Assembly: GCA_900234795.1 (NCBI GenBank)
Contig: LT962688.1
Coordinates: 3,330,001-3,362,000, forward strand
DNA from: Methylorubrum extorquens
Lineage (GTDB): Bacteria > Pseudomonadota > Alphaproteobacteria > Rhizobiales > Beijerinckiaceae
Direction: 5' to 3'
DNA length: 32,000 nt
Part shown: piece by piece, positions 8,001 to 16,318 of the stretch
Layout of the letters: each line of letters begins with the position of its first letter
How positions within the stretch are numbered: the first letter of the stretch is position 1
Made by a program: the position numbers and the translations under genes
Notes under the pieces: generated by a model
What the model was told of the DNA's origin: nothing
Seen by the model: only the letters and a program-made list of their open reading frames with translations
The model's database searches: none

Positions 8001-8037
8001 GATACGGTTCCCGCTTTGATCAAGCGGAAACCGTATC
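8001..8037 (-). terminator. hairpin immediately after the ADH stop (possible terminator or REP-like element; no clear T-tract)
   Basis: gatacggttcccgctt-tgatc-aagcggaaaccgtatc: 16-bp arms with one mismatch, beginning 6 nt downstream of the stop at 8043. Confidence 0.35.
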
Positions 8038-8042
8038 AGTCG

Positions 8043-9215
8043 TCAGGGCCGCAGCACGACCTTGATGCAGTTGTCCTTCTTGTCCCGGAACGTCCGGTAC
8101 AGCTCGGGGCCCTGCTCCAGCCCGGCCCGGTGGGTGATGACGAAAGAGGGATCGATCTGGCCCTCCTCGATCCGCCGCACGAGGTCGTCGGTCCAGCGGT
8201 TCACGTGGGTCTGCCCGGCGCGGATCGTCAGGCCCTTGTTCATCAACGCGCCCATCGGCATCTTGTCGACGAGGCCGCCATAGACGCCGGGAATCGAGAG
8301 GATGCCGGCGGGACGGCAGACATAGATCATCTCCCGCAGCACCGAGGCGCGATCGCTCTCCAGCATCATCGCCTGCTTCACCCGGTCATAGACCTGCTCG
8401 ACGGCGCGGGGCGAATGCGCCTCCATGCCGACCGCATCGATGCACTTCTCCGGACCCTTGCCGTGGGTCAGCTCGTTCAGGCGCTCGACCACGCTCTCGC
8501 GGCTGTTGTCGATGACGATCGCACCACCCGCCCGCGCCATGTCGAGGCGCTCCGGCACGCTGTCGATGCACACGACCTGCTTGGCGCCGAGCAGGATCGC
8601 CGAGCGGATCGCCATCTGCCCGACCGGGCCTGCGCCCCAGATCGCCACGGTGTCGTGCGGCTGGATGTCGGCCTGCACCGCCGCCTGCCAGCCGGTGGGG
8701 AAGATGTCGCCGAGGAACAGCACCTGCTCGTCGGTGAGCGAATCCGGCACCTTGATATGCGTCTTGTCGGCGAACGGCACCCGGACATATTCCGCCTGCC
8801 CGCCGGGATAGCCGCCGGTGAGATGCGAGTAGCCGAACAGGCCCGCCGTGCCGTGGCCGAACACCTTGGCGGCGAGATCTCGGTTGCGGTTCGAGCGCTC
8901 GCAGACCGAGAAGAAGCCGCGCTTGCACTGGTCGCACTCGCCGCAGATGATCGTGAACGGGATGACGACCCGGTCACCCTTCTTCAGCGCGCCGTTCAGG
9001 CCGCGGCCGGTCTCGACCACCTCGCCCATGAACTCGTGGCCGAGGATGTCGCCCTTCTTCATCGCCGGGATGAAGTGGTCGTAGAGATGGAGGTCCGAGC
9101 CGCAGATGGCGCAGGCGGTGACCTTGATGATCGCGTCGCGATCGTCTTCGATTTCGGGATCGGGAACCGTATCGCAGCGGATGTCCTGGGTGCCGTGCCA
9201 GACGAGGGCTCTCAT
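8043..9215 (-). CDS. zinc-dependent alcohol dehydrogenase family (glutathione-independent formaldehyde-dehydrogenase-like subgroup)
   Basis: ATG at 9215 is preceded by GGGAGAG. MRALVWHG...ACAICGSDLHLY...GHEFMGEVVETG...CGECDQCKRG (catalytic and structural Zn motifs) and a Rossmann motif IWGAGPVG are present. Confidence 0.9.
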   Translation of the reverse strand: MRALVWHGTQDIRCDTVPDPEIEDDRDAIIKVTACAICGSDLHLYDHFIPAMKKGDILGHEFMGEVVETGRGLNGALKKGDRVVIPFTIICGECDQCKRGFFSVCERSNRNRDLAAKVFGHGTAGLFGYSHLTGGYPGGQAEYVRVPFADKTHIKVPDSLTDEQVLFLGDIFPTGWQAAVQADIQPHDTVAIWGAGPVGQMAIRSAILLGAKQVVCIDSVPERLDMARAGGAIVIDNSRESVVERLNELTHGKGPEKCIDAVGMEAHSPRAVEQVYDRVKQAMMLESDRASVLREMIYVCRPAGILSIPGVYGGLVDKMPMGALMNKGLTIRAGQTHVNRWTDDLVRRIEEGQIDPSFVITHRAGLEQGPELYRTFRDKKDNCIKVVLRP

Positions 9216-9461
9216 CGGATCTCTCCCAAGGATTATTTTCGGACACGCGCGAATGCTTGCGCACGCTGCCTGCATATCCACGGGATGGCGGGTTTTGTTT
9301 CGATCTTGATCAATGATGTTTGGAGCTGCTTACAATTGATCGTTTTGCAGCTTCCCGGCGCCTCTTAGAGCCGTATCCGGCCTGATTACCTCAGGCCGGC
9401 GTCTCATGGTCTTTGTGGGAACGCGCATTCTTGCGCCGAACCGGTGACCACTTCGTCGGAA

Positions 9462-9485: not shown

Positions 9486-10940
9486 TCACGCCGCGAGGGC
9501 GTTGGCCCGCCGCAGGTCATCGACGAAGGCCTGATAGGCCGCCGCCTTCGCCGCCTCATCGGGCAGGCGCAGCAAGTAGGAGGGGTGGACCGTGATGAAG
9601 CCCGCGAACGGCCGCCCGAACTCGGCGGGGCCGCGGGCGCGGGTGATCGGGATCTGCTTGCCCGTCAGCGACAGCACCGCGGTGGCCCCCAGCGCCACGA
9701 CGAGTTTGGGGGCGACGAAGTCCAGCTCCTTCTCGAGCCACCAGCGGTAATGGCTCACCTCGCCCGCGGTTGGCTTCTCGTGGATGCGGCGCTTGCCGCG
9801 CAGCGTGAATTTGAAGTGCTTGACCGCATTCGTGAGGTAGGCCTCCCCCCGGTCGATCCCCGCATCTTCGAGTGCGCGGGAGAGAAGCTGCCCCGCCGGC
9901 CCGACGAAGGGTTTGCCCTGACGATCCTCCTGATCGCCCGGCTGTTCGCCGACGAAGGCGATCCGCGCGCCGACCGGCCCTTCGCCGAGGACGGCCTGGG
10001 TGGCGCCGGGCACCAGCGGTTCGGAACGGGCGATGATCGCGTTGAGGGCTTCCAGCGAATCCGGCTCGTCCTGGGCCATCTTCGCCACGGCGCGGACGGG
10101 GTCACGCTTGACCGGCATCGTCGGCTCCTTCTCGATCATCGCCTGCGCGCGGGCGCTCGCAGCCCGTACAAGGGCGGGAATCGCGGCCGTCTCCGGCATG
10201 TTCCGCCAGTACTTGCGGGGCATCTCGGCGCGCATGGCATCGAGGTTGAGCCGGGCCGGATTGAAGGTGCTCTCGTAATAGTCGCGCCAACCGGCCTCGA
10301 AGCCGTCGCCCTCCGGCACATCCTCGCGGCGGCCGGGCGGGCCGAAGCAGAGCGTCCCGTCCCAATGCGCCGACCCTTCCGGCGTCAGGATCGACCATGT
10401 CAGCCCACGGAAGCGATCCACGAAGAAGGGCGCGGCGGCCCCCAGGATGTGGTGGTCCGGCTCGAACCACGCCACGAAGCGCTCGGCTCCTTCCCCCGGC
10501 ACCCGGCGGAAACGTAGGAAGGCGTGCATCTTGTGCAGGTCGCGACCGATCGCCTTGCGCATCCGGTGGAGACGGTGGACGAGCGGATCGCTCAGGACAT
10601 CCATCAGCGCCCGCTCGCCGTGCAGGACGCGCCAGAGCAGGGCGTAGAGCAGGCCGTAGCGCTCGGGATCGCGGTGGGGCACCACCATCGGGATCAGCTC
10701 GGTCACCGCGCGGGGAAGCCGCAACGGCGGGCCGTCTACGGAGCCGGACTCGGCGCCGAACAGGCTCGGAGCCTCGGTCTGCCAGACGATGTTTTTCGGC
10801 GGGATCTCGGCCGCGATCAGGCGGCGCGCCGCGGTGCGAAACCCCGACAGATCTGCGCCGGGGGCGAGGCTGATGACATGGATGGCAGCGCATCGCCCTC
10901 CCCCGGCAGAGGCGGGAGAGTTTTGTGCGGGCTCGCCCAT
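9486..10940 (-). CDS. udgX: DUF4130-like N-terminal domain fused to a UdgX-type (family-4-like) uracil-DNA-binding/glycosylase domain
   Basis: ATG at 10940 shares one base with the radical-SAM stop (TGATG). The C-terminal domain carries GEQPGDQED (9936-9950 encodes GEQPG), KRRIH (9780-9794) and HPSYLLR. The N-terminal part, about 250 aa (DPERYGLLYALLWRV...MHAFLRFR...FVAWFEPDHHIL...NPARLNLDAMRAEMP), resembles the TIGR03915/DUF4130 putative DNA repair domain. Confidence 0.85.
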   Translation of the reverse strand: MGEPAQNSPASAGGGRCAAIHVISLAPGADLSGFRTAARRLIAAEIPPKNIVWQTEAPSLFGAESGSVDGPPLRLPRAVTELIPMVVPHRDPERYGLLYALLWRVLHGERALMDVLSDPLVHRLHRMRKAIGRDLHKMHAFLRFRRVPGEGAERFVAWFEPDHHILGAAAPFFVDRFRGLTWSILTPEGSAHWDGTLCFGPPGRREDVPEGDGFEAGWRDYYESTFNPARLNLDAMRAEMPRKYWRNMPETAAIPALVRAASARAQAMIEKEPTMPVKRDPVRAVAKMAQDEPDSLEALNAIIARSEPLVPGATQAVLGEGPVGARIAFVGEQPGDQEDRQGKPFVGPAGQLLSRALEDAGIDRGEAYLTNAVKHFKFTLRGKRRIHEKPTAGEVSHYRWWLEKELDFVAPKLVVALGATAVLSLTGKQIPITRARGPAEFGRPFAGFITVHPSYLLRLPDEAAKAAAYQAFVDDLRRANALAA

Positions 10941-12151
10941 CAGAACAGACTCAACTGCTCGGCCGGCTCCGCGAGCTTGGCCCGCAGATCGAGACGGTCG
11001 GTCAGCGTCGTCGGCCGGAAGTCCTCGGCGATGAGGAAGGGCCGCGCCCGCTTCAGCCCCGAACTCAGCCGGGCCACGTCGTCGAGGCGCAGGCGGCCAT
11101 GGCGGCGCGCCTTGATGATGGCATCGACCGCCCGTGCCCCGAGTCCCGGCACCCGCAGCAGCATCTCGCGGTCGGCGCGGTTCACATCGACGGGAAAACA
11201 GTGGCGGTTCTTGAGCGCCCAGGCGAGCTTGGGGTCGATGTCGAGGGCGAGCATGCCGTCCTCGGAGGCCCCGGCTACGTCGTCGGGGGAGAACTCGTAA
11301 TACCGGATCAGCCAATCGGCCTGATACAGCCGGTGCTCGCGCCGCAGCGGCGGCGCCTGCGGCGGCAGGGCCGTGGAGGCGTCGGGGATCGGGCTGAAGG
11401 CCGAGTAGTAGACGCGCTTGAGGCCGTAGGTGCCGTAGAGCAAAGCGGATTTACGGATCATCGCCTCGTCGGTGGTGGCGTCGGCCCCGACGATCACCTG
11501 CGTCGATTGCCCGGCCGGCGAGAAGCGGCGGCGCTCCTCCTTGGCCTGGACGATGCGCTCGCCGATCTGGCCCATCGCGCTCTCGATCGCCGCGCCGTCC
11601 TTCTCCGGCGCGAGGCGGTTCAGGCTCGCCTCCGTTGGCAGTTCGAGGTTGATCGAGAGCCGGTCGGCGTAGAGCCCCGCCTCCTCGATCAGCCAGGGGC
11701 TCGCCTCGGGGATCGACTTCAGGTGGATGTAGCCGCGAAAACCGTGCTCGCGCCGAAGCTTCTTGGCGACGCGGGTCAGCATCTCCATCGTGTAGTCCGG
11801 CGAGCGGATGATGCCCGAGGAGAGGAACAGCCCCTCGATGTAGTTGCGCTTGTAGAACTCGATCGTCAGCGTCACGACCTCCTCGACCGAGAAGCGCGCG
11901 CGGGCGACGTTCGAGGAGCGCCGGTTCACGCAATAGGCGCAGTCGAACAGGCAATAGTTGGTCAGCAGGATTTTGAGCAGCGAGACGCAGCGCCCGTCCG
12001 GCGTGTAGGCGTGGCAGATGCCGGCGCCCGTGGTCGAGCCGAGCCCGTCCGCGCCGGCCTTGCGCTTGGGCGCACCGGAGGACGCGCAGGAGGCGTCGTA
12101 TTTGGCGGCATCCGCAAGGATGCGCAGCTTGCGCGCGAGCTTCTCGTCCAT
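10940..12151 (-). CDS. putative DNA modification/repair radical SAM protein (TIGR03916-like) with C-terminal helix-hairpin-helix
   Basis: MDEKLARKLRILADAAKYDASC... matches the usual N-terminus of this family. CLFDCAYC (CxxxCxxC) is encoded at 11930-11953. An HhH-like LLRVPGLGARAVDAIIKARR lies near the C-terminus. The alternative GTG at 12208 would run into the osmC terminator. Confidence 0.85.
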   Translation of the reverse strand: MDEKLARKLRILADAAKYDASCASSGAPKRKAGADGLGSTTGAGICHAYTPDGRCVSLLKILLTNYCLFDCAYCVNRRSSNVARARFSVEEVVTLTIEFYKRNYIEGLFLSSGIIRSPDYTMEMLTRVAKKLRREHGFRGYIHLKSIPEASPWLIEEAGLYADRLSINLELPTEASLNRLAPEKDGAAIESAMGQIGERIVQAKEERRRFSPAGQSTQVIVGADATTDEAMIRKSALLYGTYGLKRVYYSAFSPIPDASTALPPQAPPLRREHRLYQADWLIRYYEFSPDDVAGASEDGMLALDIDPKLAWALKNRHCFPVDVNRADREMLLRVPGLGARAVDAIIKARRHGRLRLDDVARLSSGLKRARPFLIAEDFRPTTLTDRLDLRAKLAEPAEQLSLF

Positions 12152-12152
12152 C

Positions 12153-12167
12153 GAACGGAAGATGAAC
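12153..12167 (-). promoter_or_regulatory. candidate alphaproteobacterial LexA (SOS) box, GTTC-N7-GTTC
   Basis: The plus strand reads GAACggaagatGAAC, so the coding strand reads GTTCATCTTCCGTTC, ending 2 nt before the ATG at 12151. A possible -35/-10 (TTGATC at 12186-12181, N16, CATCTT at 12164-12159) overlaps it. Confidence 0.55.
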
Positions 12168-12209
12168 GCACGCGCGCCGGGATCAATGCGGCGCGTTAGC
12201 CTGCGCACC

Positions 12210-12249
12210 GGAAAAGCGCCCTCCCGCCGGCGCAGCGCGACGGGAGGGC
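12210..12249 (-). terminator. rho-independent terminator of osmC
   Basis: On the minus strand, GCCCTCCCG-(14 nt loop)-CGGGAGGGC is followed by GCTTTTCC. The 9-bp GC-rich stem is perfect and starts 10 nt after the osmC stop. Confidence 0.7.
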
Positions 12250-12258
12250 CGGGGCGGC

Positions 12259-12690
12259 TCAGCTCGGGTTCAGCGTCTTGTCGAGGGTGATCTCGGCGTT
12301 GAGGAGCTTCGAGATCGGGCAGCCCTTCTCGGCATTGCCGGCGAGTTCATCGAACTTTGCCCCATCGATGCCGGGGATCACCGCCTTGAGGGTGAGGGCC
12401 GACTTCGTGACCTTGAAGCCGTCGCCGTCCTGCACGAGCGTGACGACCGCCTTGGTGTCCAGCGAGGTCGCCTTGAGGCCGGCGGACTGGAGCTGGAAGG
12501 CGAGCGCCATGGTGAAGCAGCTCGCATGCGCGGCGGCGATCAGCTCTTCCGGATTGGTGCCGGGCTCGTTCTCGAAGCGGGTGTTGAAACCGTACGGATT
12601 GTCCGAGAGCACGCCGGATTGCGTCGTGATCTTGCCCTTGCCGGTCTTGCCGTCGCCTTCCCAGTGGGCGCTCGCGTGGCGGTCGGTCAT
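12259..12690 (-). CDS. osmC: OsmC family peroxiredoxin
   Basis: ATG at 12690 is preceded by GAGGA. HWEGDGKTGKG...TNPEELIAAAHASCFTMAL...EKGCPISKLL contains the two conserved OsmC cysteines. Confidence 0.9.
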   Translation of the reverse strand: MTDRHASAHWEGDGKTGKGKITTQSGVLSDNPYGFNTRFENEPGTNPEELIAAAHASCFTMALAFQLQSAGLKATSLDTKAVVTLVQDGDGFKVTKSALTLKAVIPGIDGAKFDELAGNAEKGCPISKLLNAEITLDKTLNPS

Positions 12691-12775
12691 GCTGTCGTCC
12701 TCGTCGTCTTCAAGCGGAAGCGATCCGCGTGGCCTTCGACGTGGAGCGGTGGACGGTCATGTCGAGGGGCAGCCC

Positions 12776-13411
12776 TCACTCTTGGTTGATGGATGTCTCA
12801 TCCTCGTCTGCTTCGCTGGCGAGCACGGCCTTGGCGAGCGCGTAGGAGAAACCGGCGCGCGCCATGGCGGCGAGATCGCGCTCGCGGTTGGCCTCGCGGG
12901 TTTCCGGCCGGCGATAGGGGCCGAGGCGGCGGCGACGGGCATAAGCAAAGGCCGCCCGCTCCTCGGTATCGGCCTCGCCCTGTTGCGTCCCGGCCGCCTC
13001 GTCCTCCTCGGCGAGGGTCGCCGCGATCGTCTCCCGGTCGATCCCCTTGGCGGCGAGCCGCGCCTGCGCCTGCCGGGTCGAGGTGCCGCGCCGCCTCAGG
13101 CCGCGCAGGCGGGCGGCGGCAAAGCGCGCATCGTCCACGAGCCCGGCCTTCTGCGCGCGGGCGACCGTCTCCTCGATCAGGCCGGCATGCGCGCTCGCAT
13201 CCTCGTCGCGGGAGCGGCAACGCCGATCGATGCGGCGGGCGAGCACCCGGCGCAGCATCTCCGACGAGGCGCCGTAGCGGTCGAGATAATGCGTCGTGAC
13301 CCGTTCCAGCCACGCGGCGGTGACCGGCGGCTCGGGCCTTGCTTCACGTCGCCCATCATGTCGCCCATCTGTTGGGCCATCACGTCGGCTTGAAACGGTT
13401 CGCGCGATCAT
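12776..13411 (-). CDS. recX: RecA regulator RecX
   Basis: WLERVTTHYLDRYGASSEMLRRVL...GLVDDARFAAARLRGLRRRGTSTRQAQARLAAKGIDRETI...RERDLAAMARAGFSYALAKAVL shows three-helix repeats typical of RecX. ATG at 13411. Confidence 0.85.
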   Translation of the reverse strand: MIARTVSSRRDGPTDGRHDGRREARPEPPVTAAWLERVTTHYLDRYGASSEMLRRVLARRIDRRCRSRDEDASAHAGLIEETVARAQKAGLVDDARFAAARLRGLRRRGTSTRQAQARLAAKGIDRETIAATLAEEDEAAGTQQGEADTEERAAFAYARRRRLGPYRRPETREANRERDLAAMARAGFSYALAKAVLASEADEDETSINQE

Positions 13412-14917: not shown

Positions 14918-16318
14918 CTAGCCCACGCCCACCGGATGCTTCACCACGAACGGCGTCCGCATCGTCACCAACTCCTCGCCGAGCGTCGGATGCACGGCGA
15001 TGGTGCGGTCGAAATCGGCCTTGGTCGCGCCCATGGTCACGGCGATGCCGACGGCCTGGATGATCTCGCCGGCATCCGTGCCGAGCACGTGGACGCCGAC
15101 CACGCGGTCGCTGGCCCGGTCCACCAGAATCTTCATGATCACCCGCTCGTCGCGGCCCGAGAGCGTCGCCTTCATCGGGCGGAAGCTCGCCTTGTAGACG
15201 TCGATGTCGCCGTAGCAGCGCCGGGCCACGTCCTCGTTGTGGCCGATCACGCCGATCTCCGGCGTCGAGAACACGGCGGTTGCGATCAGGCGGTGATCGA
15301 CGCACCAGGGCTTGTTGCCGAACACCGTGTCGGCGAAGGCGTGGCCCTCGCGGATCGCCACGGGCGTCAGCGCCGCGCGCCCGTTCACATCGCCGACGGC
15401 GTAGATCGACGGCACCCGGGTGCGCGAATCCGCCTCGACGGGGATTGCGCCGCGTTCGTCGAGGTCGATCCCGACCCGTTCCAGCCCAAGGCCGGCGACG
15501 TTCGGGCGCCGGCCTGTGGCCACCAGCACGCAATCGACGGTGAGGCTCTCGCCCCCGTTCAGGGTGGCGCGGATCGCCGAGCCGTCGCGCTCCAGGCGCT
15601 CGACGGTCTGTTCCAGCCGTAGATCCATCCGCTTGGCATAGGCCTCGCCGAGCGCGTCGGCGATCTCAGGGTCAAAGCCGCGCAGCAGGTTCTTTCCGCG
15701 ATGGAGCAGCGTGGTCTTGGAGCCGAGGCTGGCGAAGACGCCCGCGAACTCCACGGCGATGTAGCCGCCGCCGACCACGAGGATGCGCTCGGGCTGGGTC
15801 TCCAGCTCGAACACGCCGTTGGAATCGATGGCGAGTTCCGCACCGGGGATCAGCGGCTCACGCACCGGTGTGGCGCCGGTCGCGATCAGGATGAAGCGGG
15901 CCCGGACCGTGCGGTCCGCGTGCACGAGGCGTACCGTGTGCGGGTCCTCGATCACCGCGCGGTCGGCCACGACCTCGACGCCAGCGCCCGCAAGGTTGCG
16001 GCCGTAGATGCCCTCCAGCCGCGCGACCTCCGCGTCGCGGGAGCGCTTCAGAACGGCCCAGTCGAAGCGCGGCGTCTCAAGGTGCCAGCCAAAGCCGGCA
16101 GCGTCCTCGAACTCGTCGGTGAAGCGGCCGGCATAGACCATCAGCTTCTTCGGGACGCAGCCGCGGATCACGCAGGTGCCGCCGACGCGGTACTCCTCGG
16201 CCAGCATCACCCGCGCGCCGTGGCCGGCGGCGATGCGGGCCGCCCGCACCCCGCCCGAACCGCCGCCGATCACGAACAGGTCGACGTCGAAGGACTCGCT
16301 CATCGGTGTCTCGCTCAT
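14918..16318 (-). CDS. gor: glutathione-disulfide reductase
   Basis: DLFVIGGGSGGVRAAR (FAD motif), the redox-active GGTCVIRGCVPKK, an NADPH motif VVGGGYIAVEFA, and the C-terminal dimerisation HPTLGEE. The ATG at 16318 overlaps the upstream stop (ATGA); an alternative ATG lies at 16303. Confidence 0.95.
   Translation of the reverse strand: MSETPMSESFDVDLFVIGGGSGGVRAARIAAGHGARVMLAEEYRVGGTCVIRGCVPKKLMVYAGRFTDEFEDAAGFGWHLETPRFDWAVLKRSRDAEVARLEGIYGRNLAGAGVEVVADRAVIEDPHTVRLVHADRTVRARFILIATGATPVREPLIPGAELAIDSNGVFELETQPERILVVGGGYIAVEFAGVFASLGSKTTLLHRGKNLLRGFDPEIADALGEAYAKRMDLRLEQTVERLERDGSAIRATLNGGESLTVDCVLVATGRRPNVAGLGLERVGIDLDERGAIPVEADSRTRVPSIYAVGDVNGRAALTPVAIREGHAFADTVFGNKPWCVDHRLIATAVFSTPEIGVIGHNEDVARRCYGDIDVYKASFRPMKATLSGRDERVIMKILVDRASDRVVGVHVLGTDAGEIIQAVGIAVTMGATKADFDRTIAVHPTLGEELVTMRTPFVVKHPVGVG

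Follow-up and report, generated by a model that had tools for sequence, protein, structure and literature searches.

SOS control of the uracil-DNA-glycosylase operon COG1573-COG4277 has been reported in Alphaproteobacteria and Verrucomicrobia and predicted in Bacteroidetes (PMC8565304). An operon of this type is found in a stretch of 32,000 nucleotides of the Methylorubrum extorquens genome (contig LT962688.1, positions 3,330,001 to 3,362,000; hereafter the window), where a radical-SAM gene is followed by a gene encoding a UdgX-type uracil-DNA binding domain. The start codon of the radical-SAM gene is preceded by an alphaproteobacterial SOS box, GTTCATCTTCCGTTC, which comparison with related genomes and with LexA boxes of Caulobacter indicates is very probably a functional LexA operator. 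The reading as a whole, namely that this operator lies on the promoter of a two-gene radical-SAM/UdgX operon that is transcribed without a leader and induced by DNA damage, is considered probable.

The pair ccna_02417-ccna_02418 of Caulobacter crescentus (CC2332-CC2333) resembles the operon of the window in that a radical-SAM protein annotated as 'biotin synthase related' (409 amino acids) is followed by a uracil-DNA glycosylase (UDG) of the type-4/UdgX type (479 amino acids). Both genes belong to the Caulobacter SOS regulon, a gene set defined by induction with mitomycin C, LexA chromatin immunoprecipitation sequencing (ChIP-seq) and derepression in the absence of lexA, and their log2 induction after 40 min of mitomycin C is 1.8 and 2.2, respectively (PMC12700426). 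Their promoter has a LexA ChIP peak of 787 rpm and a box, GTTCTTGATTTGTTC, that is 7 bp away from the coding sequence; the operon is assigned to the class 'early' (PMC12700426). The window differs from this system in belonging to the Hyphomicrobiales instead of the Caulobacterales, in having its box only 1 bp from the ATG, and in the lower score of that box, which reads cGTTC in place of tGTTC.

Further counterparts are the 'UDG base-excision' operons of Verrucomicrobia and Bacteroidetes, in which the same COG1573-COG4277 operon is under LexA and recurs as a member of the SOS regulon (PMC8565304). The LexA motifs differ: that of Verrucomicrobia is a tandem repeat and Bacteroidetes have GGA-N5-TCC together with a second motif, whereas the window contains the direct repeat of Alphaproteobacteria. 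The same GTTC-N7-GTTC overlaps the promoter in the canonical boxes of recA, lexA, uvrA and imuA (Rhodobacter, Rhizobium/Sinorhizobium, Paracoccus and Caulobacter), although the genes of the window, UdgX and its radical-SAM partner, are biochemically unexplained and differ in this from the classical repair functions. A box that abuts the start codon is common in the class, because several Caulobacter boxes are separated from the coding sequence by 0 to 7 bp or lie 6 bp within it (imuA, 0 bp; relB-3, 0 bp; uvrD, 1 bp; bapE, 2 bp; ruvC, -6 bp; PMC12700426). The downstream gene of the window shares the hallmarks GEQPG and KRRIH with UdgX of Mycobacterium smegmatis, but here UdgX is fused to a TIGR03915/DUF4130 domain and paired with a radical-SAM protein. 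The paper describing UdgX places RecA and the SOS response downstream of UdgX-DNA complexes and discusses no LexA control of udgX (PMC4787834).

A conserved and mobile SOS box

Read on the minus strand, the region upstream of the operon consists of the osmC stop codon, a GC-rich hairpin followed by TTTT, AACGCGCCGCA-TTGATC, 16 nucleotides, GTTCATCTTCCGTTC, a single G (12152) that parts the box from the start codon, and the ATG (12151-12149). The GTTC-N7-GTTC core at 12153-12167 is the sole perfect match within the window. Direct reading of the minus strand bears out the initial annotation of this DNA, which had placed the box at 12167-12153, the ATG at 12151 and a TTGATC-N16-CATCTT arrangement at 12186-12159; both hexamers and the 16-nucleotide spacer are present. 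The same annotation had written the junction as GTTC-GA-ATG, in which the box and the ATG are right but the GA is not: the sequence is GTTC-G-ATG, the A being that of the start codon. The features of the region are listed in Table 1.

Table 1. Predicted regulatory features and genes of the radical-SAM/UdgX locus (positions in the window)
Feature	Position	Strand	Evidence or remarks
Candidate LexA operator (alphaproteobacterial SOS box) GTTCATCTTCCGTTC	12153..12167	minus	-16 to -2 from the ATG; direct sequence reading, matrix and conservation
Putative -35 hexamer TTGATC	12181..12186	minus	T of TTG at -35 from the A of the ATG; invariant in Methylorubrum
Putative -10 hexamer CATCTT	12159..12164	minus	within the LexA box; 16 nucleotides past the -35 hexamer, 7 nucleotides ahead of the ATG
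G plus ATG: radical-SAM start codon and predicted transcription start (A 12151 or G 12152)	12149..12152	minus	start site from promoter geometry
Invariant block AACGCGCCGCATTGATCC	12180..12197	minus	-35 hexamer plus 11 nucleotides upstream; identical in 17 Methylorubrum-type loci
Predicted osmC intrinsic terminator, GC-rich hairpin GCCCTCCCG...CGGGAGGGC plus TTTT	12212..12252	minus	single-sequence folds; bounds the promoter region
Radical-SAM gene, TIGR03916 (putative DNA modification/repair radical SAM protein), 403 amino acids	10940..12151	minus	NCBIfam 551 bits, cutoff 343.5
TIGR03915 (DUF4130) fused to UdgX-type uracil-DNA binding domain, 484 amino acids	9486..10940	minus	NCBIfam TIGR03915 189 bits (cutoff 112), TIGR03914 298 bits (cutoff 190)

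The strength of the site was evaluated with a matrix made from 32 Caulobacter LexA boxes of SOS promoters reported to be LexA-bound by ChIP-seq (PMC12700426 S6 Table). The site scores 17.4 bits, which is the top match in the window, while the 32 Caulobacter boxes in leave-one-out scoring range from 12.3 to 26.9 bits with a median of 19.9, and nine of them fall below 17.4. For comparison with a known SOS gene, the recA promoters of relatives were scored and carry boxes of this type (16.9 to 20.2 bits): Methylobacterium aquaticum has one box, GAACAAAACAGGTAC, at 18.9 bits, Microvirga ossetica has two (20.2 and 20.1 bits), and Shinella also has two (17.8 and 16.9 bits). These recA genes were located on large replicons by means of an alphaproteobacterial-like RecA sequence, which served as a probe only; a tblastn search of the plasmid collection with E. 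coli RecA returned only Gammaproteobacteria among its best 60 matches.

Orthologues of the operon were drawn from species genomes together with annotated plasmids and chromids. All 34 orthologous loci of the Methylobacteriaceae have a perfect box no more than 60 bp ahead of the radical-SAM start codon, and the rest of these loci (231 kb) contains two bare matches, neither of which reaches 14 bits. These loci are related, so that raw counts overstate their independence; when the 45 nucleotides upstream were clustered at 70% identity to lessen relatedness, a perfect box was found in 22 of the 22 resulting clusters, at 17.4 to 27.9 bits, and this is the fairer count. The boxes of orthologues span the Hyphomicrobiales, Rhodobacterales, Rhodospirillales and Sphingomonadales. 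A perfect box is located 1 to 28 bp before the start in Azospirillum, Shinella, Sinorhizobium, Agrobacterium vitis, Rhizobium leguminosarum and Brucella intermedia, and likewise in Paracoccus yeei, P. denitrificans, P. albus, Leisingera, Phaeobacter, Ketogulonicigenium, Yoonia and Novosphingopyxis. In Novosphingobium RL4 the box is imperfect (TTTCCTCATGCGTTC, 14.2 bits) and precedes an inferred start codon. The radical-SAM gene of Azospirillum sp. TSA2s is followed in the annotation by tnpB and not by UdgX.

The position and orientation of the box vary among these loci. In Methylorubrum and some Methylobacterium species it reads GTTC-N7-GTTC at -16 to -2, whereas other Methylobacterium species have the inverted form (GAAC-N7-GAAC), which lies at -33 to -19 and is fused to the -35 element (cTTGAAC...). 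The position of the box is about -19 to -5 in Rhizobiaceae and -31 to -17 in Brucella, P. denitrificans and Ketogulonicigenium. Where the box covers the -35 element, CATCTT, CATCTC or TATCTT is still found 6 to 7 nucleotides before the ATG (loci L016, L017, L028, L029 and L084). The repeat is therefore not conserved as a -10 element, because the hexamer remains after the box has moved away from the -10 region, and relocation of the box with the -10 element kept indicates that the repeat is retained for its own sake, as a binding site. Such a pattern of turnover is the outcome expected of selection for LexA binding itself. Within the 17 Methylorubrum-type loci, the box and the 18-nucleotide block around the -35 hexamer are invariant, and the 12 nucleotides between them (-28 to -17) vary freely. 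The invariant stretch AACGCGCCGCATTGATCC reaches 11 nucleotides beyond the -35 hexamer, more than a -35 element requires; the part upstream of the hexamer could be an UP-like element or the site of a second regulator.

The LexA control proposed in the initial annotation is thus supported by the conserved box, its Caulobacter-like score, the recA boxes of relatives and the published Caulobacter counterpart, and we infer from these that LexA would bind the Methylorubrum site and that the operon would be inducible by DNA damage.

Upstream regions of non-alphaproteobacterial orthologues contained no exact matches to the Cheo box (GAAC-N4-GTTC), to CTGT-N8-ACAG, or to the Xanthomonadales and Geobacter motifs. 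Among the loci from Clostridia metagenome-assembled genomes (L046-L066 and L072), about 15 have a TTGACA...TATAAT-like promoter some 70 nucleotides upstream of the radical-SAM gene. Several of them have (G)AACAAATATTTG over the -35 element and GTACAAATGTTTG just past the -10 element, a degenerate Cheo-box-like arrangement in genomes that are possibly closely related. These sequences are a hint that the operon may be LexA-controlled in Clostridia too.

Predicted promoter and transcript leader

The proposed promoter is of the sigma-70 type, TTGATC-N16-CATCTT, and would start transcription at 12151 or 12152, giving a two-gene transcript with a leader of 0 or 1 nucleotide and without a Shine-Dalgarno sequence. 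Bound LexA would lie across both the -10 element and the start region, excluding RNA polymerase; upon DNA damage, RecA-stimulated self-cleavage of LexA would free the promoter and allow expression of the operon. Repression by promoter occlusion, as the initial annotation had suggested, is consistent with the location of the box over the -10 element and the start region, and the geometry points to this mode of repression.

The space available for a promoter is bounded by the osmC terminator. The initial annotation had put the end of this terminator at about 12210, leaving about 58 bp, and the present analysis agrees closely: the terminator ends at about 12212, and about 60 bp separate its T run from the ATG. 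A pattern scanner applied to 11900-12800 did not call it, because the T run consists of four T's and the scanner requires at least five. The terminator is nevertheless judged to be real, because in single-sequence folds of relatives the stems differ in sequence yet still pair, and each precedes TTTT.

Several features of the upstream sequences argue for a leaderless transcript. Of the 51 distinct upstream sequences, 48 have a TTG whose T falls at -35 to -37 relative to the A of the start codon, and in 41 of them it falls at exactly -35. Counted by cluster, TTG is found at -34 to -37 in 19 of 22, independent of the position of the box, whereas a TTG on one of three given positions would occur by chance in about 2% of cases (arithmetic from the base composition of the window). 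With the TTG of the -35 hexamer exactly 35 nucleotides from the A of the ATG, transcription would most likely start at this A or at the preceding G. The window and 45 of the 51 distinct sequences contain none of GGAG, GAGG, AGGA and GGGA within the 18 nucleotides that precede the ATG. Shine-Dalgarno-like exceptions are clear in both Azospirillum loci, and a weak purine tetramer occurs once in each of L020, L021 and L083. Loci that share the -35 geometry all have an ATG start, and the lone GTG start belongs to an Azospirillum locus with a leader. The first 40 nucleotides of the predicted mRNA show no more structure than shuffled sequences do (-9.9 kcal/mol, against -12.7 on average for the shuffles; z = +1.1), and the centroid structure leaves the AUG unpaired. 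An AUG start codon and an accessible 5' end are named as leaderless determinants by Bharmal et al. (bioRxiv 10.1101/2020.05.06.081141), and leaderless mRNAs make up 7% of the mapped transcripts of M. extorquens DM4 (PMC9320726). The leaderless or near-leaderless mRNA of the initial annotation gains support from the fixed distance between TTG and ATG, the missing Shine-Dalgarno sequence and the ATG start; with a leader of 0 to 2 nucleotides, it is reasonably likely.

Besides the relatedness of the Methylobacteriaceae loci mentioned above, several observations weigh against the proposed arrangement. The box of the window has the lowest matrix score among all orthologous boxes; it scores low because cGTTC stands where tGTTC is preferred. 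Orthology with ccna_02417-ccna_02418 rests on annotation, protein sizes, gene order, the 1-nucleotide overlap of the two genes and the COG assignment in PMC8565304. The CATCTT hexamer agrees with TATAAT at three of six positions, a weak -10 match, and a scan of 11900-12800 for E. coli-consensus promoters called none. The start-site map of Caulobacter (Zhou 2015) contains only antisense starts inside CCNA_02417. Among the DM4 start-site entries listed, which come from methanol and dichloromethane cultures, there are starts for osmC (METDI3086) and none for the next gene; this fits repression of the gene, yet is no evidence for the proposed start.

The main rival explanation draws on the same observations. 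It retains the LexA operator and supposes that the mRNA has a leader, arising from a promoter that overlaps the osmC terminator or from read-through of osmC. In that case LexA would be a roadblock or would control another promoter, and ribosomes would initiate at an internal AUG lacking a Shine-Dalgarno sequence. The missing sense starts in the Caulobacter map and among the listed DM4 entries are in its favour, as are the weak -10 match and the failure of the consensus scan to call a promoter. A missing Shine-Dalgarno sequence is moreover no proof of a leaderless mRNA, because only 24.6% of Caulobacter start codons have such a site, according to the Figure S3 legend of PMC4117421. In the plasmid-borne Azospirillum loci (L074 and L075), 24 to 28 nucleotides separate the box from the start codon, which is GTG in one of them, and a purine-rich tract resembles a Shine-Dalgarno sequence; the longer gap and this tract also accord with a leader. 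Against it stand the near-constant distance from TTG to ATG wherever the box lies, the shortness of the space between the terminator T run and the ATG, and the presence of a -10-like hexamer 6 to 7 nucleotides before the ATG in both arrangements of the box. A leadered transcript is on this evidence unlikely.

Doubtful, too, is a more far-reaching view of the LexA-controlled leaderless operon, according to which either the LexA-gated leaderless layout is itself selected or the gene products form a damage-induced UdgX-adduct pathway. The ATG remains about 35 nucleotides from the -35 element in at least three orders while the operator shifts between the -10 and -35 elements and flips strand. If the layout were selected, the operon might need leaderless translation, for example for speed or because the translation machinery is damaged during the SOS response. 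If the pathway existed, the radical-SAM and DUF4130 proteins would process the covalent UdgX-DNA adduct; a literature search pairing UdgX with radical SAM found nothing.

Start codon, gene pair and surroundings

The location of the box relative to the gene depends on the choice of start codon, and public protein databases list both a form of 403 amino acids (ATG 12151) and one of 422 (GTG 12208). If the gene began at GTG 12208, the repeat would lie inside the coding sequence and would be conserved as protein. Several database entries give 422 amino acids, and in the window the reading frame stays open over 66 upstream codons. However, the match to the TIGR03916 profile starts with residue 5 of the 403-residue form, and many species have an in-frame stop 3 to 18 codons upstream without an alternative start before the ATG. 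This stop is 18 codons upstream in L012 and L014, which have no other start, and 3 to 7 codons upstream in Shinella, Sinorhizobium, Leisingera, Yoonia, Paracoccus, Brucella and Ketogulonicigenium; in most Methylobacterium, Rhizobiaceae and Rhodobacterales loci, initiation upstream of the ATG is not possible. The variable block at -28 to -17 is flanked by invariant blocks in a pattern that is not codon-wise, and GTG 12208 directly follows the T run of the osmC terminator. Because of the start of the profile and the lack of alternative starts in relatives, the start codon on this comparison is ATG 12151 and the protein has 403 amino acids. The entries of 422 amino acids are probably mis-annotated starts, and initiation at GTG 12208 is very improbable.

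By itself the bare match to GTTC-N7-GTTC is not significant, because 0.76 matches are expected in the window, where one is observed, and a match turns up in 55 of 100 shuffled sequences; the significance of the site lies in its position and conservation, added to its matrix score. A chance match without a regulatory role has next to no likelihood and is already refuted by the comparative sequence data: the box stands before the same gene in every Methylobacteriaceae locus and every upstream cluster, with two matches in the rest of those loci, it survives changes of position and orientation, and its score is within the range of Caulobacter sites. Binding of the repeat by a regulator other than LexA, or its conservation as a mere promoter core, would accord with the -10 element contained in the repeat of the window, but is hardly credible given that the repeat persists elsewhere on promoters whose -10 element lies outside it and so is not needed as a -10, that the motif equals the established LexA box, that the promoter of the apparent Caulobacter counterpart is LexA-bound in ChIP-seq, and that recA promoters of the same family carry the motif.

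The radical-SAM protein contains the CxxxCxxC cluster motif as CLFDCAYC (residues 67-74 of the translation) and a helix-hairpin-helix, with Pfam scores below the gathering thresholds for both Radical_SAM (26.3 versus 29.5) and HHH_3 (24.1 versus 27). It is 99% identical to its counterpart in Methylobacterium sp. Leaf123. The UdgX-type domain contains GEQPGDQED, in which GEQPG is motif A, as well as HPSYLLR and GKRRIH, and KRRIH is a hallmark of UdgX (PMC4787834). The TGA of the radical-SAM gene and the ATG of the UdgX fusion share one nucleotide (TGATG, 10938-10942), and the coordinates of CCNA_02417 and CCNA_02418 in Caulobacter NA1000 have the same 1-nucleotide overlap, at 2561765. This common overlap suggests that translational coupling of the gene pair is conserved.

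Upstream of the operon are osmC and a recX-like gene, and no LexA box was found upstream of either in the window. The neighbours of the operon are oxidative-stress genes (encoding a catalase-related protein, an OsmC peroxiredoxin and glutathione reductase) together with the recX-like gene (1412-2404, 12259-12690, 12776-13411 and 14918-16318). A near-perfect palindrome, GATACGGTTTCCGCTT-gatc-AAGCGGGAACCGTATC, is located at 8005-8041, directly past the stop codon of a Zn-dependent alcohol-dehydrogenase-like gene (8043-9281, minus strand). The second-best matrix match of the window (8007-8021, 13.6 bits) was rejected as an operator, being one arm of this palindrome, which looks like a terminator hairpin or the palindromic site of a regulator and not like an SOS box.

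Implications for SOS regulation in Alphaproteobacteria

SOS control of this type of operon is already in the literature, and the finding is of a known kind, sound but ordinary; it leaves the current understanding of the SOS response unchanged. What is new is the Methylobacteriaceae case, the breadth of occurrence on alphaproteobacterial chromids, the fixed geometry of the predicted leaderless promoter, and the movement and inversion of the operator within one genus. The locus clearly illustrates how an operator can turn over while its promoter stays fixed: the box has been inverted and moved between the -10 and -35 elements, and the distance from promoter to ATG has been held. For genome annotation, an alphaproteobacterial LexA box that touches a start codon may best be read as a leaderless SOS promoter. 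The lineages with a predicted LexA-controlled radical-SAM/UdgX operon are extended to the Methylobacteriaceae and to many replicons of the Rhizobiaceae and Rhodobacterales, and this wider range strengthens the case for regarding the two biochemically unexplained genes as a core DNA-damage function.

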